From: an uncultured Fibrobacteraceae bacterium
Lineage (GTDB): Bacteria; Krumholzibacteriota; Krumholzibacteriia; LZORAL124-64-63
DNA length: 64,000 nucleotides
Reading direction: 5' to 3'
NCBI GenBank assembly: GCA_964607825.1
Contig: CAZSNA010000001.1
Span: 23,697 to 87,696, forward strand
Shown here: in pieces, positions 1 to 27,632 of the stretch
Layout: every line of letters begins with the position of its first letter
Position numbering within the stretch: position 1 is the stretch's first letter
Made by a program: the position numbers and the translations under genes
Notes under the pieces: model-generated
Told to the model about the DNA's origin: nothing
The model's database searches: none
Seen by the model: only the letters and a program-made list of their open reading frames with translations

Positions 1-1362
1 GGCAAGGAGGGCCTCGACGGGCCCGGTCGCGAGATGCGCGGCCAGGACATCGCGGCTGCGCTCGGCCATCATGGCGCGGCGCTTGACCCGGGCCCGGCGG
101 CCGCGGGGCGGGTCGGCCAGGGGCGGCAGCAGCCCGAAGTTGACGTTCATGGGCGAGAAACGCGGCGAGGTGGTGTCGAAGAGGAAGCCGTCGAGCAGGG
201 CGCCCAGCAGGGTCTCGGGGGGCCAGGCCGGGAGGTCGAGCCCCCGCAGGCGGGCCGACAGGCGCCAGGCCGTGGTCAGGCCCGAGGCGATGGACTCCAC
301 GTAGCCCTCCACGCCGGTGATCTGGCCGGCGAAGGCCAGGCGAGGCTCCGTCGGCAGGGCGAAGCCCCGGTCCAGCATGCGGGGCGTATCCAGATAGAGG
401 TTGCGGTGGAGCTGGCCGTAGCGCACGAACTCGGCCCGTTCGAGCCCCGGGATCAGTCGGAAGACGCGCCGCTGCTCCCCCTGCTTGAGGCGGGTCTGGA
501 AGCCGACCAGACCGAAGAGCGTGCCTTCGCGGTTCTCCTGGCGCAGCTGGACCACGGCGTGGGGGCGCCGGCCGGTGCGAGGATCCGCCAGGCCCACCGG
601 GCGCAGCGGGCCGAAGGCCAGGGTCTCGGGCCCCGTGTCGGCGATCTCCTCCACGGGCTGGCAGCCGGCGAAGAGCAGGTCCTTGTCGAAGTCGTGGACC
701 TCGGCCCGCTCTGCGCCGACCAGGGCCGCGTGGAAGTCGCGGTACTCGTCCGCGTCCAGGGGGGCGTTGAGATAGTCGGCCTCGCCGCGGTCGTAGCGGG
801 CGGCGCGGTAGAGGACGTCCAGGTCGAGGGAGTCCAGGGTGACCGTGGGCGCGATGGCGTCGAAGAAGTGCAGGCCCGCGTCTCCGGTCAGGGCGGTGAT
901 CCTGGCGTGCAGGTCGGGCGAGGTCAGGGGGCCGGTGGCCACGATCCAGTGGGCGTCGGCGGTCTCGAGCGGGTCGACGATCTCGCCGCGTCGGATCTCG
1001 ATCCGCGAGGTCGCCTCGAGCTCGGCCGCGACCCGCGCCGAGAAGCGCGCCTTGTCCACGGCCAGGGCGGCGCCGGCGGGCACCGCGCATTCGCGGGCCA
1101 GGTCGAGCAGCCGGCATCCGGCGGCCTCCAGCTCGGTCTTGAACAGGCCCGAGGCCGAGGCGGGATCGACGCTCTTCAGGGAGTTGCTGCAGACGATCTG
1201 GGCGAGGTCTTCGCCGCTGTGGGCGGGGGTGCCGCGTGCGGGCCGCATCTCGTGCAGCACCACGTCGTGACCGAGCCGGGCCAGCTGCAGGGCGGCCTCG
1301 CAACCGGCCAGTCCGCCGCCGGCCACGTGGACGGCCGGGAGGACGGGCGGCCGGTCGGCCAT
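1..1362 (-). CDS. trmFO: Methylenetetrahydrofolate--tRNA-(uracil54-C5)-methyltransferase TrmFO/Gid, 5' part; C-terminus runs off the window
   Basis: Reverse-complement from the ATG at 1360-1362 reads MADRPPVLPAVHVAGGGLAGCEAALQLARLGHDVVLHEMRP..., the FAD-binding N-terminus typical of TrmFO. The open frame continues to position 1. Not in the ORF track because no stop falls in the window. The start overlaps the topA stop (ATGA). Confidence 0.85.
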   Translation of the reverse strand, partial: MADRPPVLPAVHVAGGGLAGCEAALQLARLGHDVVLHEMRPARGTPAHSGEDLAQIVCSNSLKSVDPASASGLFKTELEAAGCRLLDLARECAVPAGAALAVDKARFSARVAAELEATSRIEIRRGEIVDPLETADAHWIVATGPLTSPDLHARITALTGDAGLHFFDAIAPTVTLDSLDLDVLYRAARYDRGEADYLNAPLDADEYRDFHAALVGAERAEVHDFDKDLLFAGCQPVEEIADTGPETLAFGPLRPVGLADPRTGRRPHAVVQLRQENREGTLFGLVGFQTRLKQGEQRRVFRLIPGLERAEFVRYGQLHRNLYLDTPRMLDRGFALPTEPRLAFAGQITGVEGYVESIASGLTTAWRLSARLRGLDLPAWPPETLLGALLDGFLFDTTSPRFSPMNVNFGLLPPLADPPRGRRARVKRRAMMAERSRDVLAAHLATGPVEALLA

Positions 1363-4052: not shown

Positions 4053-4073
4053 ACCGGGCTCCTCGGCGCGGAC

Positions 4074-4409
4074 TCAGTGGGGACGGTGTTCGCTGAACGC
4101 CGCGCGGGGCGCGTCGTCCTCGGGAATCGTGAAGAGCAGATGGTCCACGAGCTCCTCCACATCCCAGCGGTCCAGCGGCTCGCCGCCCAGCTGCGAGGCA
4201 TAGTGGATGATCAGCTCGCGCTGCTCGTTGGGGAGCGCGCCGCGTCGGCTCAGCTCCATCAGGTAGCCGCGCGCGTCGGGTGTCAGGGCGTGCTGCTCGA
4301 GGGCGTCGAAATGCCGCAGGGCGCCGTCGGACCCGGCGCAACGGCGGAATTCCTCGTCGTCGAACATGTGGACCAGAAGCTGTCGTATCTTGCTGCCGGT
4401 GCTGTTCAT
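4074..4409 (-). CDS. Small acidic hypothetical protein (~111 aa from MNSTGSKIRQLL; the ORF could start as far up as 4505)
   Basis: ORF lies between secA and topA on the same strand with high GC3. No family recognised (…LVHMFDDEEFRRCAGSDGALRHFDALEQHALTPDARGYLMELSRRG…). Confidence 0.4.
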   Translation of the reverse strand: MNSTGSKIRQLLVHMFDDEEFRRCAGSDGALRHFDALEQHALTPDARGYLMELSRRGALPNEQRELIIHYASQLGGEPLDRWDVEELVDHLLFTIPEDDAPRAAFSEHRPH

Positions 4410-4517
4410 CGGGTCCTCCACGAATCCTGCTCGATACCATGCACGTTCGCCCGCGTCGTCGCGACACGGCCGCAGAACGCTAGCACAGGGCCGCGACCGC
4501 CGCAAGGGCGACCGTTC

Positions 4518-7500
4518 TCATCGTCCGCAGCACTTCTTGTATTTCTTGCCGCTGCCGCAGGGACAGGGCGCGTTCCTGGGCACCTTCTCGACGCTGCGCT
4601 GCATGGGCTGGGGGCGTCCCGGTATGGGCGGCTGGCCCGAGGGTGTCGGCTGGGGCGCGCCGGGATCGTCGGGGGCCGGCGGCTGGCCGCCCAGGTAGTC
4701 GACGTCCTGCTTGCTGGCCTGCATCTGCTCGGGCGGCGGCGCCGCGGGCGCCTCCTCTCGGCGTACGAGCTCGGCGCGCAGCAGCAGCCGCACGCTCTCG
4801 CGCTCCACGTTGTCCATCAGCGCCTGGAACATGTTGAAGGACTCGGCCTTGTACTCGACCAGCGGGTCCTTCTGGGCGTAGGAGCGCAGGCCGATGCCGC
4901 TGCGCAGCATGACGAGCTGGTTCAGGTGGTCCTTCCAGTGCTCGTCGATCACCTGCAGCTTGACGATGCGCTCCAGCTCGCGCATGAGCTCGGGGCCGAG
5001 GCGCGCCTCCTTCTCGGCGTGCTTGGCCAGCGCCGCCTCTTCCATGGACTGGGTGAGGGCGCCGTGGCCGATGGTCAGCCGCTCGTCCTCGGCCACCGGC
5101 AGGGGGGTCAGGAACAGGGACTGGAATTCCCGCTCGAGCTCCTCGAAATCCCAGAAGTCGTTGGCCTGCTCCTCCGGGGCATGGGCCTCCGCCAGGGCGG
5201 TCACCAGGTTGAGGACGTCGTCCCGGACGATCCCGGAGATGTCCTCCCCCAGCAGGATGTCGCGCCGCAGCCCGTAGACCACCTCGCGCTGCTTGTTGAC
5301 CACGTCGTCGTACTCGATCAGGTGCTTCCGGATGCTGAAGTTGTGCCCCTCGACGCGCTGGGCGGCCCGCTCGATGGCCTTGGTGACCATCGAATGGGTG
5401 ATGACCTCGCCCTCGCCGACGCCCATGCGGTCCATCAGCTTGATGAGCTGCTCGGAGTTGAACAGCCGCATGAGATCGTCCTCGAGCGAGAGGAAGAAGA
5501 CCGAGGCGCCGGGGTCGCCCTGGCGGCCGGCGCGGCCGCGGAGCTGGCGGTCGATGCGGCGGCTCTCGTGGCGCTCGGTGCCGATGATGTGGAGCCCGGC
5601 GGGCTCGTCGCCCACCGCGGCGGTCTCCTTGTCGTAGCCGTCGTCGGCGGGCAGGCCCAGCAGGGCGGGCATGTCGATCTTGATGTCGGTGCCGCGCCCG
5701 GCCATGTTCGTGGCGATGGTCACTGCGCCCTTGCGGCCGGCCTCCGCCACCACCTCGGCCTCGGACTTGTGGTGCTTGGCGTTGAGCACGTTGTGGTTGA
5801 TGCCGCGGCGCTTGAGCAGACGGCTCAGCAGCTCGCTGACCTCCACGGTGGTGGTGCCCACCAGCACCGGCAGGCCCGCCTCGTGCAGGCGTCCCACCTC
5901 CTCGACGATGGCGTTGTACTTCTCCTTCTTGGAGCGGAAGACCACGTCGTCGCTGTCCACGCGGCGCACCGGCTCGTTGGTGGGGATCTCCACCACGTCC
6001 AGGTCGTAGATCTGGGCGAACTCGGCCTCCTCGGTGACGGCGGTGCCCGTCATGCCGGCCAGCTTCCCGTACATGCGGAAGAAGTTCTGCAGGGTGACGG
6101 TGGCCAGGGTCTGGGTCTCCTTCTCGACCTTCACGCCCTCCTTGGCCTCCAGGGCCTGGTGGAGGCCCTCGCTGAAGCGGCGGCCGGGCATCAGGCGGCC
6201 CGTGAACTCGTCCACGATCTGGATCTTGCCGTCCATGACCACGTACTCGTCGTCGCGGTCGTAGAGGGTGTAGGCGCGCACGAGCTGGTCCACGTTGCTG
6301 ATCTGCTCGTTCTTCTCGGCGTAGGCCCGCTCGAGGGCGTCGATGCGCTCGGTGCGCTGCTCCGGCGTGAGGTCGGCGTCCTCCTGGATCTCCCCCACGC
6401 CCACGGCCAGGTCGGGCAGGACGAAGAACTCCGGGTCCTCGGAGGAGAGCTGGTCACGCCCCTTCTCGGTGAGGTCGGCCGCGCGGTTCTTCTCCTCCAC
6501 GACGTAGAGCAGGGGTTCGTCGGCCTCCCACAGGGCCTTGTCGCGCATGTAGGCCTCCTCGGTGCGGTTGACCGCGTCGAGGACGCCGGGCAGCTGGGCC
6601 AGGCGGCGGAAGCGCTTGTTCTTGGGCGCGCCGCGGGAGATGCGCAGCAGATCGAGGGCGGTCTCGGCGTCGATGTCCACGGCGTCGCCGTCCTCGGTGG
6701 CGCCCCGGAAGGCCTTCTCGACCCGCGAGAGCCACTCGTTGACCAGTCGGTTCTGCTGGCGCACCAGCCGGTCGACCCGCGGCTTGAGCTCCTCGAAACG
6801 ATGGGTCGACTTGGCCACCGCGCCGGAGATGATCAACGGCGTCCGCGCCTCGTCGATCAGCACCGAGTCGACCTCGTCCACGATGGCGTAGTTGAACTCG
6901 CGCTGCACGAGCTGGCTCTTGTGGACGGCCATGTTGTCGCGCAGATAGTCGAAACCGAACTCGTTGTTGGTGCCGTAGGTCACGTCGGCGGCGTAGGCCT
7001 CGCGACGCTCGTCCGGCGTCATGCTGTTGACGATGTAGCGGACCTCGAGCCCCAGGAAGGAGAGCACGCCGCCCATCCACTCGGCGTCGCGGCGGGCCAG
7101 GTAGTCGTTGACGGTCACCAGGTGGGCGCCCTTGCCCGACAGGGCGTTCAGGTAGAGGGGCATCACCGCCACCAGGGTCTTGCCCTCGCCCGTGGCCATC
7201 TCGGCGATCTTGCCCTGGTGCAGGACGATGCCGCCGACGATCTGCACGTCGTAGGGCACCATGTCCCAGACCATCTCGCGCTCCCAGACGGCCCAGCCGG
7301 CCTTGTGCTCGGCCAGGCGGCGACAGGCCTCCCAGACGACTCCGAAGGCCTCGGGCAACAGGTCGTCGAGGGACTCGCCCTCGGCGTGGCGGCGACGGAA
7401 CTCGTCGGTCTTGGCGCGCAGGGCCTCGTCGTCCAGGCCGGCCAGGGGCTCGCGCGCGGACTTCACCGCCTCCAGCATGGGTTGGAGCTTCTTGTAGTCG

Positions 7501-7550
7501 CGCTGCGACTTCTTGCCGAAGAGCTTTTCCAGGATGTTCGCGAAAGCCAT
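4518..7550 (-). CDS. secA: Preprotein translocase ATPase SecA
   Basis: 1010 aa with Walker [15 protein letters not shown], a DEAD-like DEVDS region and the C-terminal zinc finger [14 protein letters not shown]. Confidence 0.97.
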
Positions 7551-7593
7551 TAGCGGATCTTCTTTCGGATGGGTCGGGCGACGTCGGGTACGC

Positions 7594-8271
7594 TCAGACG
7601 AACCAGGTGTCGCAGAACTGGATGACCGCCGCCGTCGCCAGCGGCATGGTCAGGTTGTCCCAGCGGCCGGGCGTCCAGCGCTCCATGGTGGCCGAGGCCA
7701 CGCCGCCGGCCACAGAGAGCAGCAGCGAGGCGTCGCTGACGATCAGGATGACGGCGACCGAGACCAGGACGCAGGCGCCGGTGCCCGCCCAGGTCTTGTT
7801 GCCGCGCTTGGCCACCACCGGGATCCGGGAGTCGTCGCCGCGTTCCAGGCCGAGCTGCTGTCGCCGGTACGAGACCGACTGGCCGACGATCGCGGCGGCC
7901 GCGTCGCCCCAGGCCAGGCAGAGGATGCCCGCGGCGGCCGGCACCGCGGGAAAGATATAGGAGGTGATGGTGGCCCCGATCATCATGACCGAGGCGCCGG
8001 TCAGCCAGCGACGTTCGTCCCTGCGGAAGATAAGGGGAAACGTTCGGTAGAACCAGAGGGCCCAGCGGCGAGAGGACAGGCGGGCCGTGTCCACGGAGAT
8101 GCCGAAGAGCGAGACGGCGGCCAGGACCAGCGTGCACAGGGGGTCGTCCACCAGCAGGACCCAGATCGCCAGGCCCGTGGAGCTCAGGTGGAAGGCCTTG
8201 CGGCCCCACTCGACGCTCTCGCGCCAGGTCAGGGCGGGCTGGGCGTCGGTCTTGCGGTCGGCGGGCGTCAT
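7594..8271 (-). CDS. Polytopic membrane protein of the CTP-dependent polyprenol/diacylglycerol kinase (COG0170, CdsA/dolichol-kinase-like) family
   Basis: Multiple TM helices. N-terminal E..GRKAFH and C-terminal [11 protein letters not shown] motifs are typical of the family. Stop overlaps the start of the downstream transglycosylase gene (ATGA). Confidence 0.45.
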
Positions 8272-10419
8272 CTGGGGTCCCCGGATTCTGGCGCGGGTGC
8301 GGCGGGGTCGGATCCCGCAGTCTCAGGGCCAAGTATCCAGGCGTAGACGGCCCGGTCAATCAAAACCTTCTCCACGTAGCGCCGGGTCTCCGGGTAGCCG
8401 ATCCAGGACAGGAAGACCTCGCCGGGCGCGCGCCCGCCGAGCTGGGCGTCCCAGCGCTTCACCGCGCCGGGACCGGCGTTGTAGTCGGCCAGACAGCGGT
8501 AGGGGTCGCTGTCGTAGCGACGGGCCGCCGTGGCCAGCAGCTCCAGGCCCGCCCCCACCGAGGCGCCGAGACGGCGCCAGGTCGCCTCGCCGTCGTGATG
8601 TCCGCGGCCGGGGTAATGGAAGGGCATGATCTGCATCCAGCCCAGGGCGCCCGAGCGGGAGCGCACGGCCGGATCGAAGAGGGACTCGTTGCGGGCGACG
8701 GCCAGCACCAGGGCCGGGTCGAGATCCGAGCCGTCGAGCCGGCGCCACAGCTCGGCGTCGCCGGGGACCGGATACAGGAGGCGCAGGTTCTCGTCCAGGC
8801 TCAAGCCCGGGCGCGACAGCGAGACCACGGCGGCGAGCTGGCCACGGGCGTCGTCCAGCAGGAGGGCGGCGCCGAGCAGGAGGTGGCGGTCCAGAACCGT
8901 CTCGTGCGCGTCGACCAGGTGCGGAATGGGCGTGGGGACCGCGGGGGGCGCCTGCGCCCCGTCATCGGCCAGACGGCGCAGGATCTCCCAGGCGCGGAGC
9001 TCATCGCGCCAGGGGCGGTCCGCCAGGGCGGACGGCAGGATCCGGCCCAGGGCGCTCATGGGGGCCTCTGCCCCACTTGCGGCCAGAAGATCGCCGTATT
9101 CGCGCCACCGGGGATCCTCGGGACGATCGGCGGCCAGTCTGCGGCCGAGGACGAGCCAGGCCCGGGCGGCCCGTGTCCGGGCGTTCAGGACCGATCCTCG
9201 CCCGGCCTCGACGCTGACGGGCTGCGCACGCCCCTCGCTCACCTGCGCCTCGTATCGGCCCAGACGCCCTGGCCGCGGCGTGGCGTCCGCTTCGCCGGCC
9301 AGGGCCGCGAGCAGTTCAGCGGCCCGCGCGCGACCCTGATGGGCCGTGAGAGCGGCCATACGCTCGATCTCCATGTTCACGCGGCGCAGCACGCGTCCCC
9401 GACCGCTGCGCTCGGCCAGCATGCGGGCGGCGCGCAGGTTCGGGATGACGCTGCCCCAGTAGCCGTCGCTCGCCTGCTTGTCGGCGGCCCGCCTCAGGTA
9501 GCCGGCGCGATGCTCGTCGGCGATCCCCGGCAAGGCGGCGAGTCGCTCGGCGGCCGCGGCCGTCCAGCCCAGCAGCCGCCAGCGTCCGCGCAACCAGTGC
9601 TCCTGATCTCTCGCGTTGACAGGGGGATCCGGGAATTGTCCGTAGTGACGTCTCAAGGACGACTCGCGCAGGACGGCCGCACCCAGAGCGCTGCGGGCGT
9701 CGGTCGCGTAGGGGGCGCGGTCGATGTCGCGGGGCCCGAGGCCCGGCGAGCGCAGGGCGGCCACGAAGCGGGCCGCCCTGTCGTCGGACGGCTTGTCGGG
9801 CAGCAGCGGCAGGCCGAGGTGCTCGCGACGGATCCGCCAGAGCGTCCAGCCCGTATCCCGATCGTAGGGGCCCAGGTCGAGGAGCTCGGGCCACAGGCTC
9901 GTGTCCCGGGTTCCGGGCACGATCCGCGCTTCCAGTCGACGCTTCCGCAGGGTCCAGACGAAACGCTCCAGCTCGTCGAGCCTGTGGGCGGGCACGGTCC
10001 TCAGGAGCAGGTCGATGGCTCGCAGGGCCAGTTCCGGCTCCCGAGGGGCCAGGTCGAGGGCGCGCTTGGCGAGCAGGCTCTCCGCGAGATCGTCGGGCAG
10101 CTCGGCCGCGGGGTCTGCGGCCAGGCTGTCGCGTGCCGACCATCGGGTCGCGGCGGCCGCCAGCCAGGCGGCGGCGCCGTCGGCCGTGTGGAGCCTGAGC
10201 GACGCGGGTTCGAGGCCGCGCATCCAGGCCGCCTCCCAGGCGGCCGACCAGTGCGGCGCGGCGAAGAGGTCGGCCGGCCAGCCGTCCACAGTCTCGACGG
10301 CGTCCGGGTCGCGGTACTTGCCGACGCGGGCGTCCTCCAGGAAGGGATCCACCAGGAGGTCGGCGGCGGCGGGAACGGCGAGGAGCAGACAGACGAACGC
10401 CGGGATCCATCCACGGTTC
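8268..10419 (-). CDS. slt: Slt70-like soluble lytic murein transglycosylase (true start at MNRGW, signal peptide; the track ORF is over-extended upstream)
   Basis: C-terminal SLT domain ...ARNESLFDPAVRSRSGALGWMQIMPFHYPG...ADYNAGPGAV. N-terminal signal MNRGWIPAFVCLLLAVPAAA. ATG at ~10417-10419 overlaps the stop of the upstream protease gene. Confidence 0.75.
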
Positions 10420-13108
10420 ATCTCAGCAGCACGACCTTTCGGGTCGGGGTGACGGCGCCGTCGGGCACCGAGAGGCGCAGCAGGTAGAGGCCGGCGGGCA
10501 GGCGGCGGCCGTCGTCGTCGCGACCGTCCCAGGATACGAGGTATGCGCCGTTCGGCAACCACCAGTTCCTCACGCGGCGGGCTCGGGCGTCGTAGGCGGA
10601 GAGGCGGGCGCCGATCGCTTCGGTGTGGACCTCGAGGAAGACCTCCCCCGCGCTGGGGTTGGGGCGCGGCAGGCCCAGGCTCAGCGCGGGTGGCGTAGCC
10701 AAGGCGCCCAGCAAGGCGCTGCGGGAGACCACCTCGCCGAGATCGATGCGGATGCGGCCACGGAGCAGGACCCGCGCGTCGCCGTAACCGTCGGGCAAGG
10801 CGAGCTGGGCGGCGGGGATCACCATGTCGTCGGCGGTCTGGCCCGCGGGCACGTCGCCGTCCCACACGGGACTCCAGGTGGCGCCGTTGTCCAGGCTCGC
10901 GTCGACCGAGATCCGCTCGGGCATCTCCCAGGGCCAGCTCAGGGCGACACCGCCCCGCGCCTCGTCCCAGGCGGCGGCGAAGGGCGAGCCCGGATCCGCG
11001 ACCAGATCCATCCGGCCGAGCAGCCATCCACGCCCCCGCCTGAGCCGGTCGCTGGCCAGCCGGAACTCGAGCCGGGTGCCGCCCGCCAGGTCTTCGGGGA
11101 AGACGAAGGTGTCCACGCGCCACACAGGGGCGTCGTCGTCGGTGAGGCCGCCGGGCGAGACGAAGGCCTCGCGGCCGTGCAGGGGATTCTCGACCGCGCC
11201 GTCCACGCGTCCGTCGTAGCCGCCGTCGGGGGTGAGCGTCGTGTAGTCGCCCTCGGGGTCGAGGTAGCTCACCAGGGCCCCGTCGCTGCCGGTCCCCGGC
11301 GTGAAGGCGTGGATGTCGACGGCGTGGATCAGGCGCAGGACCGAGCCCGGCTCGGGGATGAAGCGGGGCGAGGTCAGCCGGGCGTCGCCCAGGTTGGCGT
11401 AGAGCACGTCGGGCCAGTCGGAGCCGTCGCCGTGGGCGGTGGCCGTGCAGGCGAGCAGCGGCGCGTCGGGCAGCCCGGGGGCCGCCGCGGGGCTCCAGGC
11501 GAACCAGTGGGTGGTGCTGCCGATCGATGGCTCGGACCAGCCCGTCGCGAAGGGGTCGTCCAGGGCGAAGGGCTCGTCGGCGGGTTCCCAGACCCAGGTC
11601 CGCTCAACAGTCTCCAGCAGGGTCCCGTTCCGGAAGATCTGGACCGTGAATTCCGAGGCGTCGCCCGGTCCGGGCGTATCGCCGGGCTGCCAGACGATGG
11701 CCTCGGTCAGGATCCAGATGATGTGGTCGTCCCGCTCGAGAGACCGCTCGACCTGCAGGACGCCGGGGGCGAACCGCCCGAAGTCGTCGTAGTCGAGCTT
11801 GGTCACGATGACCGAGATCTCGTCGTCCCAGGCGGCATGGCCGGTCAGGACGATGTGGCAAGTGACCTCGCCGCCGTTGTCGATCATCGCGAAGTCGAGG
11901 TCGAAGGGGTTTCCGAGCAGGTCGTACATGAAGCTGTAGTCGTACGTGACGCCCTTGAACTCGAGTCGTGCCTCGGACGGACCCGCATACCCGTCGCTCG
12001 ACGGAGAAGAGTATGGACCGAACACGTCGCCGTCGCCGAAGAGGTCCTGCGGCCCGCCGGAGGTCTCCCCCGCGGCCACGTCGTCCACGCCGTCGGCCTC
12101 GACCAGGCGGACGCGCAGATGAGGGCTCGCCCCGGACGACACGGCGTCGTCCGGCACCGACTCGTCCACGTGCAGCACCTCGAAGCGGAGCTCCGGAAAG
12201 GCCGCGTCGTAGGGTGCGTCGTCGAAGCCTCCGCGCAGGCGCACCAGGAAGTACTCGCCGGGGTCGTCGGCGCTCGCGGGTATCCGGGTCACATGGCGTG
12301 GGGCGCGGATCACGGTGCCGGCGGTGCCGGACGACAGGACGGTCTCCTCGGCCCAGCCCAGTTCAAGCAGGCTGTAGGCGTCCGGCAGCGCGGCGCCGGT
12401 GCCGTCGCCCCGGCCCCAGGCCCCGGCGGCCATCAGGCTGACGGCGCCCAGGCCGCCGCGGCTGACGGCCGAACCGGGGTCGGCGGGCAGGTCCGTGTCG
12501 TAGCGGTCCTCGAGGCCGAGCAGGTGGCCCGTCTCGTGGGCCCACACGCCGGGTCCGCTGTGGAGGCTGGCGACGGCGTAGCTCTGGGCCTCGTGGCCGC
12601 CCTGGCGGTAGGGCTCCTCGAGGTAGAACTGCAGGGGCTCCACCCAGCCGTCGACGGGATCGTTCTCCAGGCCGGGCGCCGCATGGAGGATCAGGACGCC
12701 GTCGACGATCCCGTCGCCGTCGGCGTCGGCGGTCGCGAAGTCCAGCCCCGCCGCGTCGGCGCCGGCGATGGCCTCGGCCGCCAGGGCGCGGGTGCGCACC
12801 ACGCTGTGCGGGTTGTAGCGGTCCGAATACCAGGAGGTCTCCTCGACCAGATGGACCAGGGGCGCCAGGGTCACCCGCAGCACATCGCTGCGCCCGCTGG
12901 CGGCGTAGAAGTAGCGCTCGAGGGTCTCGGCGCCGAGGCCGGCCACCCGCGGCGTCAGGTCGCGGGCGGGATCCCAGTCCACGGGCAGACGCCGGTCGGC
13001 GAAATCGACGGGGATCACCAGCAGACGGAACAGGGGGCCGCTCTTGGCGGGGTCGGTGAAGGCCGTCCGCATGGCGTCGCGGCGCTCCGCCCGGCGCTCG
13101 CTCTGCAC
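10418..13108 (-). CDS. Immune-inhibitor-A-like M6 zinc metalloprotease with a type-A T9SS C-terminal sorting domain; the N-terminus is probably mis-called (see finding)
   Basis: M6 N-domain (LLVIPVDFAD) and HEXXH in VWAHETGHLLGLEDRYD. C-terminus has PNPSAGEVFLEV...YLVSWDGRDDDGRRLPAGLYLLRL...RKVVLLR (Por-secretion-tail-like). The track start is a GTG with no signal peptide. Confidence 0.75.
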   Translation of the reverse strand: MQSERRAERRDAMRTAFTDPAKSGPLFRLLVIPVDFADRRLPVDWDPARDLTPRVAGLGAETLERYFYAASGRSDVLRVTLAPLVHLVEETSWYSDRYNPHSVVRTRALAAEAIAGADAAGLDFATADADGDGIVDGVLILHAAPGLENDPVDGWVEPLQFYLEEPYRQGGHEAQSYAVASLHSGPGVWAHETGHLLGLEDRYDTDLPADPGSAVSRGGLGAVSLMAAGAWGRGDGTGAALPDAYSLLELGWAEETVLSSGTAGTVIRAPRHVTRIPASADDPGEYFLVRLRGGFDDAPYDAAFPELRFEVLHVDESVPDDAVSSGASPHLRVRLVEADGVDDVAAGETSGGPQDLFGDGDVFGPYSSPSSDGYAGPSEARLEFKGVTYDYSFMYDLLGNPFDLDFAMIDNGGEVTCHIVLTGHAAWDDEISVIVTKLDYDDFGRFAPGVLQVERSLERDDHIIWILTEAIVWQPGDTPGPGDASEFTVQIFRNGTLLETVERTWVWEPADEPFALDDPFATGWSEPSIGSTTHWFAWSPAAAPGLPDAPLLACTATAHGDGSDWPDVLYANLGDARLTSPRFIPEPGSVLRLIHAVDIHAFTPGTGSDGALVSYLDPEGDYTTLTPDGGYDGRVDGAVENPLHGREAFVSPGGLTDDDAPVWRVDTFVFPEDLAGGTRLEFRLASDRLRRGRGWLLGRMDLVADPGSPFAAAWDEARGGVALSWPWEMPERISVDASLDNGATWSPVWDGDVPAGQTADDMVIPAAQLALPDGYGDARVLLRGRIRIDLGEVVSRSALLGALATPPALSLGLPRPNPSAGEVFLEVHTEAIGARLSAYDARARRVRNWWLPNGAYLVSWDGRDDDGRRLPAGLYLLRLSVPDGAVTPTRKVVLLR

Positions 13109-13196
13109 CGCGTCGGTCGCGCCCCGGACGCACGCGGCCGTCCCCAGCAGGACGGCCAGCGTCAGGATCAGGCGTTGCGTCGTCGGCTTCAGGCGC

Positions 13197-14747
13197 TCAC
13201 TCCCATTCGATGGTGCTCGGGGGCTTCGAACTGATGTCGTAGGCCACCCGGTTGATCCCCCGCACCTCGTTGATGATGCGGTTGCTGACGCGGGCCAGCA
13301 CCTGGTCGGGGATGCGGGCCCAGTCGGCGGTCATGCCGTCGAGGCTGGTGACCGCCCGCAGGGCCACCACCGACTCGTAGGTGCGCTGGTCCCCCATCAC
13401 GCCCACGGTCTGCACGGGCAGCAGCACCGCGCCGGCCTGCCAGATGCGGTCGTACTCCCCGGAGGCGCGCAGCTCGCTGATGAAGATATGGTCGGCGGCC
13501 TGCAGAAGGCGAACGCGTTCCGGCGTGACGTCGCCGAGGATGCGCACGCCGAGGCCCGGCCCCGGGAAGGGATGGCGCATCAGCAGGGCGTCGTCGAGAC
13601 CCAGGCCGCGGCCCACCTTGCGCACCTCGTCCTTGAAGAGCTCGCCCAGGGGCTCGAGCAGCTCGAAGCCCAGCTCGGCGGGCAGGCCGCCCACGTTGTG
13701 GTGCGACTTGATCACGTGCGAGGGGCCGTTGACCGACACCGACTCGATGCGGTCGGGATAGAGCGTGCCCTGGGCCAGGAAGTGCAGGGGGCCCAGGTCG
13801 GACGTCGCCGTCTTGAAGACCTCGATGAAGGTCTCGCCGATGATCTTGCGCTTGCGCTCGGGGTCGGTCACGCCGCTCAACCGCTGCAGGAAGAGGTCGG
13901 CCGCGTCGACGCGCACCACCGGGCGGTGCAGGAAGCCGTTGAGGGTGCGCTCCACCTCGTCGGCCTCCTGGTGACGCAGCAGGCCGTTGTCGACGAAGAC
14001 CGTGTGGAGCTGATCTCGCACGGCGCGGTCGATGAGCGAGGCGGTCACGGTGGAGTCCACGCCGCCGGAGACCGCGCAGAGCACCTGGCGGTCGCCGACG
14101 GTCTCGGTGATGTCGGCCACGGTCGCCTCGATGAAGGCGGCCGCCGACCACTCGCTCTCGATGGCGCAGATGTCCCGGGCGAAGTGGCGCAGGATCGTCA
14201 TGCCGTGCTCGGTGTGCACCACCTCGGGGTGGAACTGCACGCAGTACCGGGCGCGGGCCTCGTCGCCCGCGGCGGCGAAGGGGATCGACTCGGAGCTCGC
14301 CAGGGCCGCGAAGCCCTCGGGCAGGGCGCCGACGCGGTCGCCGTGGCTCATCCACACGTCCTGACGCTCGGGCGTGTCGTCGAAGAGGCGGCTCTCCCCC
14401 GTGCGCGTGATGACGGCCGGGCCGTACTCGCGGCTGTCCGAGCCCTCGATGGCTCCGCCCAGCTTGCGGCACATGAGCTGCATGCCGTAGCAGATGCCCA
14501 GCAACGGCTTGCCCTCGTCGAAGAGCTCGTCGCCGATGTCGGGCGCGCCGTCCTCGTAGACCGACGACGGACCTCCGCTGAGTACCACGCCGCGGATCTC
14601 GTCGCGGCCGAGCAGCTCCCGGTAGCGGTCGAAGGGATAGATCTGGGAGAAGACGCCCACCTCGCGCAGTCGGCGCGCGATGAGCTGGGTGTACTGGGAT
14701 CCGAAATCGAGGACCGCCACCTCGGGCTGGCCCGGCTGGGTCGTCAT
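13197..14747 (-). CDS. guaA: GMP synthase (glutamine-hydrolysing)
   Basis: 516 aa. GATase domain with the catalytic-Cys motif [11 protein letters not shown]-loop SGGVDSTV, C-terminus ...PPSTIEWE. Confidence 0.95.
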
Positions 14748-14766
14748 GCTCGCGGTACCGTCCTTC

Positions 14767-16311
14767 TCAGTGGCGGAAGTGCCGCCGGTCGGTGTGGATC
14801 AGGGTGACGCCGAGACGGTTCGCCGCCTCGATGACCTCCTCGTCGCGGATCGAGCCCCCCGGCGCGATGACGCCGGCCACGCCCGCCTCGTGCAGGCGCT
14901 CGATGCTGTCCGGGAAGGGGAAGAAGGCGTCCGAGGCGCATACACATCCGGTCAGGTCGAGTTCCTGGTCCCCCGCCTTGCGCACGGCGATGCGCGTGGA
15001 GTCGACCCGGCTCATCTGGCCGGCGCCGATGCCCAGGGTGGCCTCGTGATCGCCGAGGACGATGGCGTTGGACTTGACGTGCTTGCAGACCTTCCACTGG
15101 AACCTCAGGGCGGCGGTCAGCCGCTCGTCGGGCTCGGGGCCGGCCACGTGCTTCCAGTCGTCCAGCTCGGGGAAGCCCTCGTCCTCCTCCTGGTGGAGCT
15201 GGACCTGTCCGAAGGCCAGTCCCTTGCCGGTGGTCGCCGCGCCGAACACCTCGGGGTCGAGGGCCAGCACCCGCAGGTTCTTCTTCTTGCAGAGGGTCGC
15301 GAGGGCGTCCTCGTCGTAGGACGGGGCCAGCACCACCTCGCAGAAGCGCTTGCGCAGGATCTGCACCGCCGCGTCGTCCACCTCGCAGGTGAAGGCGAAG
15401 ATGCCGCCGAAGGCCGACTCGGGGTCGCAGCGCAGGGCCGCCTCGAGGGCCTCGGCCGCGGTCGCGCCCACGCCCACCCCGCAGGGGTTGGTGTGCTTGA
15501 TGGCGGCGCAGCAGACGCCGTCGAGGTCGCCCACCAGCTTGGCCGCCGCGATCACGTCCACGAAATTGTTGAACGAGAGCGCCTTGCCGTTGAGCTGGAC
15601 CAGGCCCATGCCCGCCAGGGGGTCGTCGGCGTCCAGGCCGGGCAGGAAGAGCTCCGCGCGTTGATGGGGATTCTCGCCGTAGCGCAGCTCCACCGAGAGA
15701 TGGCCGTCGTGGGCGGCGCCTTCGAAGTACTCGGCGATCTGGGCGTCGTAGTCGGCGACCAGGGCGAAGGTCTCGGCGGCCATGCGGCGGCGGAAGTCGG
15801 CGTCGGGGAAACCGCCGCCGGCCTCGCTGGCCGCGATGAAGTCCTCGTAGAGCTCGGGGTCGCTCAGGACGCAGACCCGGGCGTGGTTCTTGGCCGCCGC
15901 CCGCAGCAGCGAGGGACCGCCGATGTCGATCTTCTCGATGGTGGCGGCGTGGTCGGCGCCGTCGGACACGGCCCCCGCGAAGTCGTAGAGGTTGCACACC
16001 ACCACGTCCACCGGCGAGACGCCCAGCTCGGACACGTCGGCGAAGTCGCTTTCGGCGGCGCCGAGGATGCCGCCGAAGACCAGCGGGTGGAGGGTCTTGA
16101 CGCGGCCGCCGAAGATCTCGGGGAAGCCGGTCAGATCGCTCACGTCGCGCACCTCGTGGCCCAGCTCGCGCAGCCGGGCGGCGGTGCCGCCGCTGGCGAC
16201 GAACTCGTATCCCTGCGCGGCGAGGGCGGCGGCCAGGCCGTCGAGACCGGACTTGTCCGTCACGCTCAGCAACGCACGGCGGGGGCGGTTCAGCTCAGGA
16301 TCGCGGACCAT
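14767..16311 (-). CDS. purH: Bifunctional AICAR transformylase / IMP cyclohydrolase PurH (start at [22 protein letters not shown]; the track ORF is extended by 233 codons)
   Basis: MGS-like N-domain [11 protein letters not shown]...SGGTA and AICARFT domain. ATG at ~16309-16311. 22-nt overlap with purC. Confidence 0.95.
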
Positions 16312-17195
16312 GCGCGGGCCTCCTCGGCGAACAGGATGTTGAGCACCTCGAGATACCGGGCCGAGGTGCGCTCCAGGATATCCGTCGGCAGCTGCGGCGG
16401 CGGGTAGGCCTTGTCCCAGTCCAGGGTGTCGAGATGGTTGCGCAGGATCTGCTTGTCCCAGCTCGGCGGCTCCTCCCCCGGCACGTGCTCGGCGGCGGGC
16501 CAGAAGCGGCTGGAGTCGGGCGTGAGCACCTCGTCGATCAGGACGATGTTCCCGTCGATGCGTCCGAACTCGAACTTGGTGTCGGCGATGAGCACGCCGC
16601 CCGCCTTGGCGTAGGCCGCGGCGCGCGTGTAGAGGTCGAGGGTGAGCTCGCGCAGCCGGTTCGCGTCCGCCTCGCCGATGAGATCGACGGTCTCCGCGAA
16701 GGAGATGTTCTCGTCGTGGCCCGTCTCGGCCTTGGTCGAGGGGGTGTACAGGGGCGCGTCGAGCTGCTGCGACTTGAGCAGGCCCTCGGGCAGCGTATGG
16801 CCGCAGATGGTCCCGTCGTTCAGATAGGAGCGCCAGCCCGAGCCCGTGATGTAGCCGCGGGCGATGCATTCCACCGGGAAGGGCTCCGCCTTGCGCACCA
16901 GCATGGAGCGACCGGAGAGCTCGTCGCGCAGATCGCTGAAGGGCGCCGGGAAGAGATCGGCCTCGGCAGTCACCAGGTGATTCGTGACTTCGTTGAAGTG
17001 ATTCAGCCAAGCCAGTGTCATCACGGTAAGTATGCAGCCGCGCCCCGGCACGGTCTGGTCCATGATGACGTCGTAGGCGGAGATCCGATCCGTGGCGACG
17101 ATGAGCAGCTCCTCGCCCAGATCGAAGATCTCGCGCACCTTGCCCTTGCGGTCGGGGGTCAGTCCTAGATCGACCGTGCTGCGCAGAGATTGCAT
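16290..17195 (-). CDS. purC: SAICAR synthetase
   Basis: 301 aa; GKVREIFDLGEELLIVATDRISAYD and other SAICAR synthetase motifs. Confidence 0.93.
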   Translation of the reverse strand: MQSLRSTVDLGLTPDRKGKVREIFDLGEELLIVATDRISAYDVIMDQTVPGRGCILTVMTLAWLNHFNEVTNHLVTAEADLFPAPFSDLRDELSGRSMLVRKAEPFPVECIARGYITGSGWRSYLNDGTICGHTLPEGLLKSQQLDAPLYTPSTKAETGHDENISFAETVDLIGEADANRLRELTLDLYTRAAAYAKAGGVLIADTKFEFGRIDGNIVLIDEVLTPDSSRFWPAAEHVPGEEPPSWDKQILRNHLDTLDWDKAYPPPQLPTDILERTSARYLEVLNILFAEEARAWSAILS

Positions 17196-17243
17196 GGGTC
17201 TCCCGTTTCTGCGGAGGGTTCTGAGGGGTGGGACGCGGGCATG

Positions 17244-19595
17244 TTAGCCGCCGTCCTGCACGGTGTCAAGTCGGCGCGACGGCGGTCCGTGCAGGCTGGA
17301 AATGCGAGGCGGTCCCGGGCCGTCCCAATGGACGAACAGGGTGCCCCTCAGGTCCGTGCGCAGGGTCGCGAGCGTCTCCCCGGCGGCCGTGAAGGGACCG
17401 TGGCTGGGGTGGCCGTGACGACTGTCGATGCCGCAGCTGATCAGGACCAGTCGAGGGCGCGTGGCCTCCAGCAGGGCGGGCGAGCTGGACGTACGGCTGC
17501 CGTGGTGCCCGGCCTTGAGCACGTCGATCCCTCCGGGGGGCCAGGCAGTCGTGTGGGACAGCAGCCGCCGTTCGCCGACGCCTTCCAGATCGCCGGTCCA
17601 CAGGCCGCGGATCCGTTCCCCGTCGACCAGGATCACGGCCAGGGAGCGATCGTTCTCGTGTTCGGCGTCGAGATTCGACGCGCAGACCAGCGACCAGGCG
17701 CCGGCCCGGTGCAGGGTATCCCCCGGCGCGGGTCGGAGGGCGACCGCCTCCCCGGGCGCCGTGGTCGCGCCGCCCAGCCACCAGGCGCCCACCGGCAGGG
17801 CGTCGCCGACAGCGTCGGCCGCTCCGTCGTGGTCGGCGTGGTGGTGGGTCAGGATCACGCCGGCGAGACGTTCGACGCCCTCGCGTCGCAACCACGGCCG
17901 CACATCGCGCACGAAGGGCCCGCTGGCGCCCCAGGACTCGCCCGTGTCGATCAGCACGGCGCTGCGGTCGGGGAACACGAGCAGGGCGCAGTCCCCCTGG
18001 CCCACGTCGAACTGGACGGCGCTCATGCCGTCCGCAGGCAGACGGCGGTCCAGCGTGGGCAGCAGGATCAACAGGCCGGCGCCGAAGACGCCCGCCGTCC
18101 GCCAGCGCAGGGACGGTCCCCGCAGGAGCAGCGCGAACCCCACGGCGCCGGCCAGGAAGATCGAACAGCCCGCCAGGCTCCAGACCGGCAGACCGATGCG
18201 CAGGTCCGTTCCGGACGACAACCACGCGGCGCCGCCCGAGATGAGGCGCAGCACCAGCCAGGCGTCCGCCGCCAGCGCCTGCGCCGCCCAGGGCCAGGGA
18301 CTGAGCAGGGCTCCGGCCGACAGCCAGACCGCCGCTCCGAAGGCGGGTACGGCCGCGAGGTTGTAGGCCGTGGCCAGGGGATGGATCCAGCCGAAGCTGC
18401 GGGCGGTCTCGGGCAGCGCACCGAACTGGGCGCCCAGGCTCACAGTCACGGCGTTGCCGAGCCAGCGGAGCGGTCGCGGGAGGGTCGACAGGACCGGGAC
18501 GGCCAGGCGCAGGGAGACCAGGATGCCGGCCGCCGCCCCGAAGGAGAGTCGCAGTCCGGAGTCGGTCAGGGCGTCGGGCGTCGCCAGGGCCCAGAGCCAG
18601 AGCATCAGGCCCAGGGTCCGGAGTCCGTCGTGGGCCCGTCCGCTCCAGGCGGCCAGGGCGGCGGCGAGCAGCAGACCGGAGGCCCTCAGCGCGGAGCCCG
18701 GCGCGCCCGTCAGCAGGACGTAGACGGTCAGGAACGCGGCCAGCCCCAGCAGGCGCGACAGCGCACCGGCACGCAGGCCCTTCAGGCACAGCAGCCACAC
18801 CCCCGCCACCAGGCCCACGTGCAGGCCGCTCACGGCGAAGAGATGGCCCAGGCCGACCGCACCATAGGCCGCGCGCAGGTCGCGAACCTCGGCCCCGCGA
18901 CGACCGAGGAGCACGGAGGCGAGCAGGTTGGCTTCGCCCGTCGGGAAGAGGTGGGCGAGGCGGGCGAGCATGGCGCCGCGGATCACGCCCAGGGCCGAGC
19001 CGGCCGTGCCGGCCAGGGCATCTCCGGCCGTGGGAGCCGACTGCATGCGTGACAGGCGACCGTCTAACGACAGGCCCCGGCCCCGCAGGAAGCGCCGGGG
19101 ATCGAAACCCCCGGGTACGGTCGCGCGTCCAGGTGGCGAGGCCTCCAGCTCCCCCGCCACGCGGGACCACATGCGCGGCGCGGAGCCACGTCCGCGCAGC
19201 ATCACGCCCGTGCCCGGCGCCAGGTCGCCTTCATGTGCAATCACCGTGGCCGGGGCTCGCCAGCGGTCCGCGTCGACCGACGGCCAGGCGGTGGTGCGCA
19301 GGAGGGCCGGTGCGGTGTGGGACACGGGCCGCGACGGCGCCCAGGGCGTGTCCGCGAGCAGCTCGCGGGGCCGATCGTCGGCGGCGCGGACGGCGCGACC
19401 GGCGCACCAGCCGGCGACGGCGGTGATCGCGGAGGTTCCGCCCGTCAGGACGGGATGTCCGCCGGCCAGGCGCAGCAGCGGCGCCGAGCAGGCCAGGCGA
19501 ATCCAGGCGGACGCCGCGCCGGGCGGCTCGGGTCGGCCAGGACTCTCTTCACCGACGGTGAACGAGACGATCATCAGCAGCGACCAGGCCACGGG
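17244..19595 (-). CDS. comEC: ComEC/Rec2 DNA-uptake channel protein (competence domain plus C-terminal metallo-beta-lactamase domain). Start uncertain (GTG ~19595 or ATG 19574); the track ORF is over-extended
   Basis: TM-rich competence domain (…LFAVSGLHVGLVAGVWLL…) and MBL motif ILTHHHADHDG after GMSAVQFDVGQGDCALLVFPD. Confidence 0.8.
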   Translation of the reverse strand, partial: PVAWSLLMIVSFTVGEESPGRPEPPGAASAWIRLACSAPLLRLAGGHPVLTGGTSAITAVAGWCAGRAVRAADDRPRELLADTPWAPSRPVSHTAPALLRTTAWPSVDADRWRAPATVIAHEGDLAPGTGVMLRGRGSAPRMWSRVAGELEASPPGRATVPGGFDPRRFLRGRGLSLDGRLSRMQSAPTAGDALAGTAGSALGVIRGAMLARLAHLFPTGEANLLASVLLGRRGAEVRDLRAAYGAVGLGHLFAVSGLHVGLVAGVWLLCLKGLRAGALSRLLGLAAFLTVYVLLTGAPGSALRASGLLLAAALAAWSGRAHDGLRTLGLMLWLWALATPDALTDSGLRLSFGAAAGILVSLRLAVPVLSTLPRPLRWLGNAVTVSLGAQFGALPETARSFGWIHPLATAYNLAAVPAFGAAVWLSAGALLSPWPWAAQALAADAWLVLRLISGGAAWLSSGTDLRIGLPVWSLAGCSIFLAGAVGFALLLRGPSLRWRTAGVFGAGLLILLPTLDRRLPADGMSAVQFDVGQGDCALLVFPDRSAVLIDTGESWGASGPFVRDVRPWLRREGVERLAGVILTHHHADHDGAADAVGDALPVGAWWLGGATTAPGEAVALRPAPGDTLHRAGAWSLVCASNLDAEHENDRSLAVILVDGERIRGLWTGDLEGVGERRLLSHTTAWPPGGIDVLKAGHHGSRTSSSPALLEATRPRLVLISCGIDSRHGHPSHGPFTAAGETLATLRTDLRGTLFVHWDGPGPPRISSLHGPPSRRLDTVQDGG

Positions 19596-19615
19596 CCAGG
19601 GGAGCCGGTCGGCGA

Positions 19616-21004
19616 TCAGTCGGTGGGCGCGCTGTAGCGGGGCAGGGTGAGGACCGGGTCTCCGTCTGGATTCCAGAAGTGGCACCGGTTGCGGCCCCTC
19701 TGCTTGGACAGGTAGAGCATGCGGTCGGCGTTGCGGTAGAGCTCGTCGGGCGTGTCGCCCCCGCCCGGGAAGGCGGCGCCCCCGAAGGAGACGGTCACGC
19801 GCAAGGGGGACTCCGCGTCGGGATCGGACAGACGCAGGTTGGCGATGCCCACCTGGATGCGCGTCACGATGTCGCGGGCCGCGTCGAGTTCGGTGTTGGG
19901 CAGCACCAGGGCGAATTCCTCCCCGCCCACCCGGCAGACCAGATCGATCCGGCGCAGGCCGCGGAGCAGTTCGCGGGCCACGGCCCGCAGCACGCGGTCG
20001 CCGGCCGGATGTCCGAAGCGGTCGTTGATGTCCTTGAAGTGGTCGATATCCCCGAGGAGCAGCACCAGCGTGGAGTTGCGGCGCTGCGCACGTTCGATCT
20101 CGAGGGCGATCTGCTCCTCGAAGAAGCCCCGGTTGTGGACGCCGGTCAGCGGATCGACGTGGACCAGGCGCGTCATCCGGTGGGCCTGGCGCCACCCGTT
20201 GGTGACGAAGCGCGAGATGCGGCGGGCGAGCCGGATCAGGCTTTCACGCTCCGTGCCGACGCGGGCCACGGCGTAGAGCAGGCCGGCCTCCGCGACCGCG
20301 GTCCCGTCCGGCGTCTCGAGGACCTCGCGCGGCGGATAGAGCGGCACCGCCACGCCGCCGTGGAAGTCGGCGTCGCCGTCCGTTGCCGCGGCTCGCAGAC
20401 GCGGGGGCAGCTCCTCGCGGTCATGGATCCACACGGCCTCGCCCGCGCGGCGGGACGAGGTCCAGAACGGGCGTTCGCCCTGCGGGCAGTGGGTCACGTC
20501 CGGCAGCGGGTCGAGACCCTCGAGCTCGTCGAAGAGCTCGACGTGAAGGTCCACGTCGTCGAAGGCGGGTCGAAGCATGTCCAGCACGCCCTGCAGCAGG
20601 ACGGCCTCGCCATCGCTGGCGGCCCGCGTGAGGTTCAGGTCCTGGGCCCGCTCCATGGCGTTCAGCACGCGCTCGTGCATGCTGAACTCGTTGCCGGGAA
20701 TGCGGTCGCCTCGGTCCGTTCCGGCGGGGTCGCGAGCGATGTCCGCAGGGGCTTCGCTGAAGATCGGCGCCAGATCCAGAAGCATCGAATGACCGCGGAG
20801 CGCGAAATGCCGGGCCGGGCCCTCGTCCTGGTCGCCGACCAGGACGCGCACCAGATCTCCCCGGCCGACCAGGGTCGCCACCAGCGTCCGTCCGGCCGCC
20901 TGCAACGCCGCGGTATCGCCGCCGGCCAGGGCCACGCGCAGGTCGTGGCGCAGCGCGGGTCCGATGCGGGCTACGGACATCAGATGTCGGATCAGGTCGA
21001 TCAC
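19616..21004 (-). CDS. Diguanylate cyclase (GGDEF) with an N-terminal ~290-aa uncharacterised (GAF-like) sensory region
   Basis: GGDEF domain with active-site GGEEF (RVGGEEFALVL) and DxLTG…NRG upstream motifs. Directly upstream of comEC on the same strand. Confidence 0.85.
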   Translation of the reverse strand: MIDLIRHLMSVARIGPALRHDLRVALAGGDTAALQAAGRTLVATLVGRGDLVRVLVGDQDEGPARHFALRGHSMLLDLAPIFSEAPADIARDPAGTDRGDRIPGNEFSMHERVLNAMERAQDLNLTRAASDGEAVLLQGVLDMLRPAFDDVDLHVELFDELEGLDPLPDVTHCPQGERPFWTSSRRAGEAVWIHDREELPPRLRAAATDGDADFHGGVAVPLYPPREVLETPDGTAVAEAGLLYAVARVGTERESLIRLARRISRFVTNGWRQAHRMTRLVHVDPLTGVHNRGFFEEQIALEIERAQRRNSTLVLLLGDIDHFKDINDRFGHPAGDRVLRAVARELLRGLRRIDLVCRVGGEEFALVLPNTELDAARDIVTRIQVGIANLRLSDPDAESPLRVTVSFGGAAFPGGGDTPDELYRNADRMLYLSKQRGRNRCHFWNPDGDPVLTLPRYSAPTD

Positions 21005-26295: not shown

Positions 26296-26607
26296 TCAGG
26301 CCCGGGTGTCCAGCCGCCGGCCCACGCCGTCGGCGTCGTCCTCTTCGGTCTCGTCCCCGGCCGCCACCTCGGCGTCGCGGGAGTCGGCCGCCTCGTCCTG
26401 CTCCCGTTGCCGGCGCTCGTCCGGATCCACGCGGGAGCGGGTGTCCGTTTCCTCGGTCTGCTTGACCCGGTCCACGCGCTTGTCGTCCTGCGCCGTCTTG
26501 CTGGCGGCGGCGGGGTCGGTCTGGTTGGCCTGGCCCTTGGCCTGGGTACGGGCCACGTTCGAGGCCTGGCTCAGGGTCGTGTTGACCGAGATGCCGTCTG
26601 CGGCCAT
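26296..26607 (-). CDS. Hypothetical highly charged, probably disordered 103-aa protein
   Basis: D/E/R/Q/T-rich (…TEETDTRSRVDPDERRQREQDEAADSRDAEVAAGDETEEDDADG…). Immediately downstream of fliA. Lacks the conserved FlgM C-terminal motif. Confidence 0.35.
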   Translation of the reverse strand: MAADGISVNTTLSQASNVARTQAKGQANQTDPAAASKTAQDDKRVDRVKQTEETDTRSRVDPDERRQREQDEAADSRDAEVAAGDETEEDDADGVGRRLDTRA

Positions 26608-26629
26608 GGCCCCTCCTCTCCCCTGCCCG

Positions 26630-27627: not shown

Positions 27628-27632
27628 CGTCG

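Follow-up and report, generated by a model that had tools for sequence, protein, structure and literature searches.

A probable CTG initiation codon for an M6-family metalloprotease gene downstream of guaA in an uncultured Krumholzibacteriota bacterium

Where does translation of a protease begin when its gene has no canonical start codon ahead of the encoded signal peptide? This question is raised by a locus from an uncultured Fibrobacteraceae bacterium (Krumholzibacteriota in the GTDB lineage), in which an M6-family metalloprotease gene follows guaA on the minus strand of a 64,000-nucleotide (nt) stretch of contig CAZSNA010000001.1 (assembly GCA_964607825.1, positions 23,697 to 87,696), hereafter the window, numbered from its first letter. 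All features of the locus given below are on the minus strand unless marked otherwise. The first canonical in-frame start is a GTG (13106..13108), which would give an 896-amino acid (aa) product without a signal peptide and has no Shine-Dalgarno site upstream of it; the public gene calls (P0001, 884 aa, in both NCBI and Logan) begin at an ATG further downstream (13070..13072). Between a stop near 13336 and GTG 13108 the protease frame remains open and contains no in-frame ATG, GTG or TTG; this interval encodes a signal peptide. The original prediction had noted the called GTG, the signal peptide encoded upstream of it and the lack of a canonical initiator there, and had also described an out-of-frame ATG at 13206, overlapping the last codons of guaA, from which a −1 shift after GCC would enter the protease frame; all of these statements were verified. 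It had offered a sequencing indel, a programmed shift or initiation at CTG as explanations. We consider the last to be probably correct: the true 5' end of the gene would be the CTG at 13192-13190, giving a 924-aa precursor, (f)Met-KPTTQRLILTLAVLLGTAAC…, by near-cognate CUG initiation.

The 5' end of the protease gene

Alignment of orthologous N-termini provided the main evidence for this start. The two closest orthologues, P0002 (70% identity, 924 aa; locus L006) and P0003 (63% identity, 923 aa; locus L007), each cover 100% of the query when it is translated from the CTG, and both are found within the same purH-guaA-M6-SLT gene order. P0002 starts from an ATG with the N-terminus MTKTTRRLILTLAVLLGTAAS (short form MTKTTRRLILTLAVLLGTAA) and P0003 from a GTG with MTRKILRRLLPPLAVLLGTAAY (MTRKILRRLL…). 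The window, which reads L-KPTTQRLILTLAVLLGTAAC from the CTG, aligns codon for codon with this ATG and this GTG, without any change of frame. Fourteen of the first 21 residues are identical between the window and P0002, with n-regions of TTQRLIL and TT-RRLIL, respectively, and column 1 of a 15-protein alignment holds Met in 14 proteins, the window being the sole exception. Every orthologue has an N-terminal hydrophobic signal peptide before a conserved RxERRA motif, and none starts at the equivalent of GTG 13108. Of the explanations offered earlier, CTG initiation would thus fit, the orthologous Met aligning with CTG 13192 and a GGGAG lying 7 nt upstream of it in a genome that uses Shine-Dalgarno sites.

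Translation from the CTG (13190..13192), which would be decoded as fMet, defines a re-annotated full-length precursor of 924 codons plus stop (10418..13192). It adds 28 codons (13109..13192), (M)KPTTQRLILTLAVLLGTAACVRGATDA, that are absent from every canonical-start call. The GC content at third positions (GC3) of these codons is 0.96, compared with 0.71 and 0.57 in the other two frames, one of which contains stops; as it matches the GC3 of the genes in the window (0.85-0.98, at an overall GC of 69.5%), the stretch is coding-like. A predicted Sec signal peptide, as read from its sequence features, is present only when translation begins at CTG 13192, with K2 and R7 in the n-region, an h-region of 13 residues (L8-A20) and small residues at VRG|A or TDA|V. 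Judged against its orthologues, the public annotation P0001 is N-terminally truncated; such calls lose the signal peptide, so that an exported protease is predicted to be cytoplasmic.

The context of the CTG is also suited to ribosome binding. A Shine-Dalgarno-like GGGAG (13200..13204), contributed by the last Trp-Glu codons of guaA (TGG GAG), is positioned 7 nt upstream, and among the near-cognate codons of the open upstream stretch only CTG 13192 has a Shine-Dalgarno site. With a match defined as at least 4 nt at a spacing of 4-11 nt, such sites were found at 27 of the 40 gene starts in the window, compared with 16% of random positions and 14% of internal ATG or GTG codons. Bacteroidota largely dispense with Shine-Dalgarno sites, unlike this relative from the Fibrobacterota-Chlorobiota-Bacteroidota (FCB) group, which uses strong ones. 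The guaA stop codon (TGA, 13197..13199) is 4 nt upstream of the CTG, and the RNA at the junction is less structured than shuffled sequence (z = +1.31). The two genes are co-oriented and 4 nt apart, and no match to a promoter or terminator was found between them, which is the layout of a translationally coupled pair, with guaA as the putative upstream partner. Elsewhere in the window, many gene starts carry a perfect AGGAGG (for example, in regions 26607-26640, 27983-28010, 31215-31245 and 38321-38350).

Comparison with the closest orthologues also suggests how the canonical initiator may have been lost. The orthologous starts lie 10-13 nt past the guaA stop (L006 and L007) and the window CTG only 4 nt past it, the junction in the window being 9 nt shorter than that of L006. 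L006 itself has a CTG at +4 (TGA GTCC CTG CGG ACG ATG ACG…), and deletion of its CGGACGATG, a segment between TG repeats, would give the architecture of the window in a single step; this serves as an illustration only, L006 being a cousin and not an ancestor of the window lineage. There is no sign in the sequence that the protease gene is decaying. With L007 as outgroup, 84 amino-acid changes are unique to the window lineage and 78 to the L006 branch; the ratio of nonsynonymous to synonymous substitution rates (dN/dS) is 0.39-0.44 in all three pairwise comparisons among the window, L006 and L007; and about 130 invariant alignment columns, including HExxH, are all intact in the window protein. 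This strain alone, its copies being all identical, would still allow a very recent inactivation.

Recurrence at the guaA junction in Krumholzibacteriota

The window is one of several loci of this kind. An alignment-based scan of GTDB species genomes retrieved 66 loci, mostly from metagenome-assembled genomes (MAGs) of Candidatus Krumholzibacteriota/-ia, some auto-labelled Fibrobacteraceae or Latescibacterota; further loci came from a second protein search and from contig look-ups. For 42 distinct guaA-adjacent orthologues we counted the residues of the uncharged signal-peptide core that are left after the first canonical start. At most 11 core residues are left in 10 of them, and at least 14 in all others apart from L050 and L052. 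The 10 comprise the window (−6) and L068 (1 residue; 5' end within L068:2299-2380), L078 (4; L078:1752-1830), L079 (4; L079:65-150), L046 (6; L046:2360-2420), L082 (6; L082:1761-1830), L076 (9; L076:1749-1830), L081 (10; L081:1713-1830), L085 (11; L085:1758-1830) and L087 (11; L087:1261-1330). L050 (L050:2294-2420) and L052 (L052:2399-2480), judged by eye, are also without a canonical start ahead of the hydrophobic core, which brings the non-canonical cases to 10-12 of 42. In each of these, a CTG (an ATC in L046 and possibly an ATT in L052) located 1-22 nt past the guaA stop restores 14-23 residues. Public calls for at least 10 such orthologues are truncated at internal GTG or TTG codons, and several of the non-canonical cases are present in at least two independent assemblies, the L082 protein being found on 24 contigs including two NCBI assemblies.

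The geometry of the window (stop-N4-CTG) is exactly matched by L076/L077 (TGA-CCGG-CTG) and L082-84 (TAG-CGCC-CTG), and the CTG of L078 and the ATC of L046, 1 nt past the stop, occupy the position of the GTG or ATG in L024, L042, L060 and L065. A neighbour-joining tree of the mature protein sequences, with the reading frame anchored on HExxH, placed the window as an isolated case inside a canonical-start clade, and L068 likewise stands alone. Of the 15 members of a deep clade (45-67% pairwise identity), 9-10 lack a canonical start and the rest use TTG or GTG. Intact genes that have diverged this far cannot consist entirely of recent pseudogenes, and the start-less state is therefore compatible with long-term function. 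TTG starts being common in sister lineages, TTG to CTG transitions under GC pressure would be a plausible route to it.

The last codon of guaA is GAG in 12 of 12 non-canonical cases and never GAA, compared with 20 GAG and 10 GAA in canonical ones (Fisher p = 0.02, kinship ignored). The median stop-to-start distance is 4 nt in non-canonical and 13 nt in canonical cases, with p = 0.006 for the six clearest cases and p = 0.19 when weaker ones are included (kinship again ignored), and we do not rely on this effect. On a broader and more tentative reading, which we put forward as a possibility somewhat short of even, canonical initiators would be dispensable at the guaA-M6 junction in Krumholzibacteriota: ribosomes held by GGGAG may reinitiate on CTG, ATC or ATT slightly further downstream, an arrangement that may have arisen at least three times, that may have persisted through the deep clade and that may act as an attenuator setting a low ratio of protease to GuaA. 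If this is true, standard gene callers would systematically mis-annotate these exported proteases as cytoplasmic; callers limited to ATG, GTG and TTG would repeat the error wherever the pattern occurs. The loci would then form a new and comparatively well-supported set of non-canonical starts in an uncultured phylum.

One of the orthologues differs from all of these. In L072 (L072:2334-2470; long-read MAG MFD01299.bin.2.49), an ATG followed by MRRALL… is found in one frame, which stops after 42 codons, and the mature protease in another. Either the frameshift is real or the long reads introduced an indel error; the case of the window, by contrast, is cleanly in frame.

Mechanism, precedents and alternative explanations

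Taking these observations together, we propose that a 9-nt in-frame difference from the closest orthologues would have removed the ATG or GTG initiator, leaving the CTG. The CUG would then be read by the initiator tRNA, positioned by the Shine-Dalgarno site inside the final Trp-Glu codons of guaA, and ribosomes terminating on guaA 4 nt upstream would probably help, by termination-reinitiation or by local unfolding of the mRNA. Output would probably be below that of an ATG, a level that may be acceptable, or even an advantage, for a secreted protease that is co-transcribed with a housekeeping enzyme, as a weak start would attenuate the protease relative to guaA. We infer the use of CUG, its efficiency and its dependence on guaA translation from the sequence.

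Conserved non-canonical starts are rare and usually mark special expression control (infC, rpsL, dnaA). In E. coli, infC and pcnB have AUU starts, that of infC being part of the autoregulatory loop of initiation factor 3 (IF3). The protease would share with these two genes, and with a plasmid RepA that has a CTG start, a weak non-canonical initiator in a functional gene, one that may set low or regulated expression. It differs from infC in that no autoregulatory logic is evident, the codon is CTG and the host belongs to an uncultured FCB-group phylum. Further parallels come from Deinococcus-Thermus, where proteomics showed that RpsL begins at CTG and DnaA at ATC, and where the absence of conserved residues pointed to CTG as the start of Deide_03051; the RepA CTG start is cited there as known (Baudet et al. 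2010, PMC2830850). As in rpsL, Deide_03051 and dnaA, a near-cognate codon would replace ATG, GTG or TTG, the start is recognized through conserved N-terminal residues that are lost in canonical calls, and it is conserved among related species. Unlike RpsL and DnaA, for which there is peptide evidence, the protease start is known from comparison alone; it is also tied to a single junction, 1-22 nt past the guaA stop, and the residues lost are those of the signal peptide, so that a wrong call alters the predicted location of the protein.

Coupling works best when stop and start lie very close together, and Shine-Dalgarno sites influence it; known coupled pairs of close genes include trpE-trpD, and galT-galK or rplK-rplA at +3 nt (reviewed in PMC12548453). 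The protease resembles these pairs in its 4-nt stop-start gap, its Shine-Dalgarno site inside the upstream coding sequence, its shared operon and the ATGA overlap at the next junction. The described cases, unlike the protease, reinitiate at canonical codons, and we know of no demonstration of coupling to a CUG start. A CTG-started protease would be a new example of a known but rare phenomenon, and the added interest lies in its recurrence at the same junction across an uncultured phylum. Since the cases are tied to one tightly coupled junction, whether termination-reinitiation relaxes start-codon stringency is directly testable.

Several points weigh against CUG initiation. The entire case is comparative and sequence-based, and expression could be very low, as CUG is a poor initiator in E. 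coli, where it works at around 1-2% (0.02-3%) of the level of AUG (bioRxiv 10.1101/063800). Because guaA coding constrains the GGGAG, the motif does not count as separate evidence that a ribosome-binding site has been selected for. By chance alone, a CTG would be expected close to the appropriate position, because CTG is the commonest Leu codon at 70% GC and signal peptides are rich in Leu. A CTG start is seen at no other gene of the 64-kb window, and the best near-cognate codon in L050, L052 and L085 would exclude a charged n-region. Finally, the close copies of this strain are all identical, so that the persistence of the CTG state in this lineage is undated.

The inefficiency of CUG and the identity of the strain copies, which would allow the event to be recent, also lend some support to the most serious alternative, namely that the loss of the start created a null or near-null allele: the 9-nt deletion would have removed the initiator, the protease would effectively not be made, and the open reading frame (ORF) and signal peptide would be recent relics. 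Moreover, an intact ORF is weak evidence of function at 70% GC, given that an ORF of 869 aa runs antisense to the same gene. We nonetheless regard a null allele as unlikely, as the window branch shows no excess of changes (84 against 78) and a dN/dS like that of the other pairs, the strain occurs in at least five runs, the start-less state extends across a deep clade of intact orthologues, and the CTG has a correctly spaced Shine-Dalgarno site and adjoins the guaA stop. Initiation at a near-cognate codon deeper in the signal peptide (CTG 13171, ATC 13168, CTG 13165 or others), which would leave no K/R n-region, appears improbable. Several in-frame CTG and ATC codons are available there, and the inferred signal peptides of some relatives have no charged n-region; against this, none of these codons has a Shine-Dalgarno site, it is CTG 13192 to which the orthologous Met aligns, and the residues of the n-region have been conserved.

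The out-of-frame ATG at 13206 opens a mini-ORF, ATG GGA GTG AGC GCC TGA (MGVSA*, 13189..13206), with MSA* as an alternative product from GTG 13200, a codon that overlaps the guaA stop as GTGA. A programmed shift, which the original prediction had envisaged from the ATG, would start at either codon and would require a −1 shift or hop before TGA 13191, yielding MGVSA-LKPTT…. In its favour are a canonical ATG or GTG just one frame away, with a stop that overlaps the CTG, and a more distant orthologue, P0010, that is called from the equivalent ATG, there in frame (MGVSRPV…). Like dnaX and prfB, the locus has a canonical start in one frame, the main ORF in another and a GGGAG-like motif beside a stop; unlike them, it has no slippery site (no X_XXY_YYZ heptamer in 13212-13180), no possible re-pairing (tRNA-Ala cannot move from GCC to CGC) and no downstream stimulatory structure by the z-score given above. 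The closest orthologues simply start in frame and do not keep the two-frame layout. ATG 13206 and GTG 13200 can be regarded as by-products, because the conserved guaA tail GAA-TGG-GAG-TGA (EWE*) forces both, and equivalents of the two codons occur in all orthologous loci, whatever frame the protease uses. The overlap of the mini-ORF TGA with the proposed start, as CTGA, is likewise unavoidable, because a TGA in the mini-ORF frame implies an NTG codon in the protease frame. The shift is thus unsupported, and we consider it highly improbable. The mini-ORF itself is probably incidental; it could relay terminating ribosomes and would at most be a second route to reinitiation, still dependent on CUG as initiator.

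It is harder still to believe that translation truly begins at GTG 13108 or at the publicly annotated ATG 13072, giving a protein devoid of a signal peptide. No other canonical starts are available, and gene callers chose these two, but neither is the start in any orthologue, all orthologues have a signal peptide, the 28 codons upstream are coding-like and conserved, and GTG 13108 lacks a Shine-Dalgarno site. An indel or substitution introduced by sequencing or assembly at 13170-13200 has a negligible chance of being the cause. Nothing speaks for such an error beyond the missing start codon and the frameshift in the same region of L072, an unrelated long-read MAG orthologue. A 100%-identical protein was retrieved from 10 contigs, and five Logan assemblies (SRR24302418, SRR31802798, SRR31802800, SRR31802804 and SRR8146441, independent Sequence Read Archive runs from three accession series) match the window at 100% identity across 4.6-7.6 kb including the junction. 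Because these six reconstructions are identical, an artefact is excluded for practical purposes, and the orthologue alignment needs no correction of frame; the indel that had been suspected near 13175-13195 can be set aside. A search of Joint Genome Institute (JGI) metagenome contigs for the exact junction sequence, its CTG written as NTG, gave no matches and no canonical-start strain variants, and a JGI search with conserved signal-peptide DNA returned two unrelated chance matches only, with nothing between 70% and 100% identity.

The protease and its genomic context

Profile searches placed the protease in the M6 family (PF05547, 29 bits against a cut-off of 22), and TIGR03296 scored 83 bits, below its cut-off of 110.8. 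The zinc-binding motif HETGH (HExxH; 12524..12538) comprises residues 219-223 counted from the CTG, and the columns of H219, E220 and H223 are invariant in the 15-protein alignment. At the C-terminus, a FlgD_ig-like beta-sandwich (PF13860; 10469..10594) may represent a sorting tail of the type IX secretion system (T9SS). The match to PF13860 (E = 1.3e-5, 25.5 bits) is under the cut-off of 27, and neither TIGR04183 nor PF18962 matched the window protease; some homologues have PF13860 or PF18962, or are named T9SS type A sorting domain proteins. The earlier argument that an exported protease needs a signal peptide was reasonable, but the T9SS tail on which it leaned is a sub-threshold match and not firmly supported.

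Of the 'signal or lipoprotein peptide' proposed earlier, the signal peptide stood and the lipoprotein part is uncertain. Cys21 is present in the signal peptide, within a lipobox-like T-A-A-C that has Thr at −3, and this position holds Ser or Tyr in the two closest orthologues and Cys in P0005, P0007, P0009 and P0010. The motif LLGT[AV]AC (window 13121-13132, residues 21-24) recurs in the latter four proteins and in L010.

The upstream gene, guaA (13197..14747), encodes a GMP synthase of 516 aa (Pfam GATase 7e-39, GMP_synt_C 6e-43) and ends in ATC GAA TGG GAG TGA (IEWE*). We also considered a GuaA-protease fusion, made by a +1 shift or readthrough at the guaA stop, and rejected it: re-pairing of tRNA-Glu from GAG to AGU is impossible, and a signal peptide inside the fusion would be senseless. 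Genes on the minus strand follow the order purC-purH-guaA-M6-SLT-hypothetical-secA-topA, a co-directional string that spans 1362-17195 from purC to topA, and the purH-guaA-M6-SLT order is kept in orthologous loci down to around 45% protein identity. At the downstream junction, the stop of the protease gene and the start of the SLT-domain gene (8268-10421) share an ATGA (10418..10421), and the hypothetical gene between the SLT gene and secA (7594-8271) has no Pfam match.

For no other gene of the window did we find, upstream and in frame, a CTG, ATC or ATT that combined a Shine-Dalgarno site with a meaningful extension of the N-terminus. On present evidence the phenomenon is therefore specific to the guaA-protease junction and not genome-wide, and genome-wide use of CTG starts was rejected for the window.

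Several overlapping reading frames accompany these genes. The 869-aa ORF covers nearly the whole protease gene in antisense (10625-13234, plus strand), and several further ORFs (100-600 aa) lie across guaA and purH in different frames. A GC3 of around 0.92-0.95 is typical of genes, and at guaA, purH and the protease only the minus-strand frames show such values, so the antisense and overlapping ORFs are high-GC artefacts and not genes. Several stretches of the window, for example 17243-19616, 43031-44749 and 50793-52341, have no ORF that passes the GC3 filter, and Rfam and tRNA scans detected no tRNA, tmRNA, rRNA or any other Rfam family at the gathering threshold in the 64-kb window. Further along, around 16 tightly packed genes occupy 26296-41467 on the minus strand, with overlapping or nearly abutting ends and mostly perfect Shine-Dalgarno sites.

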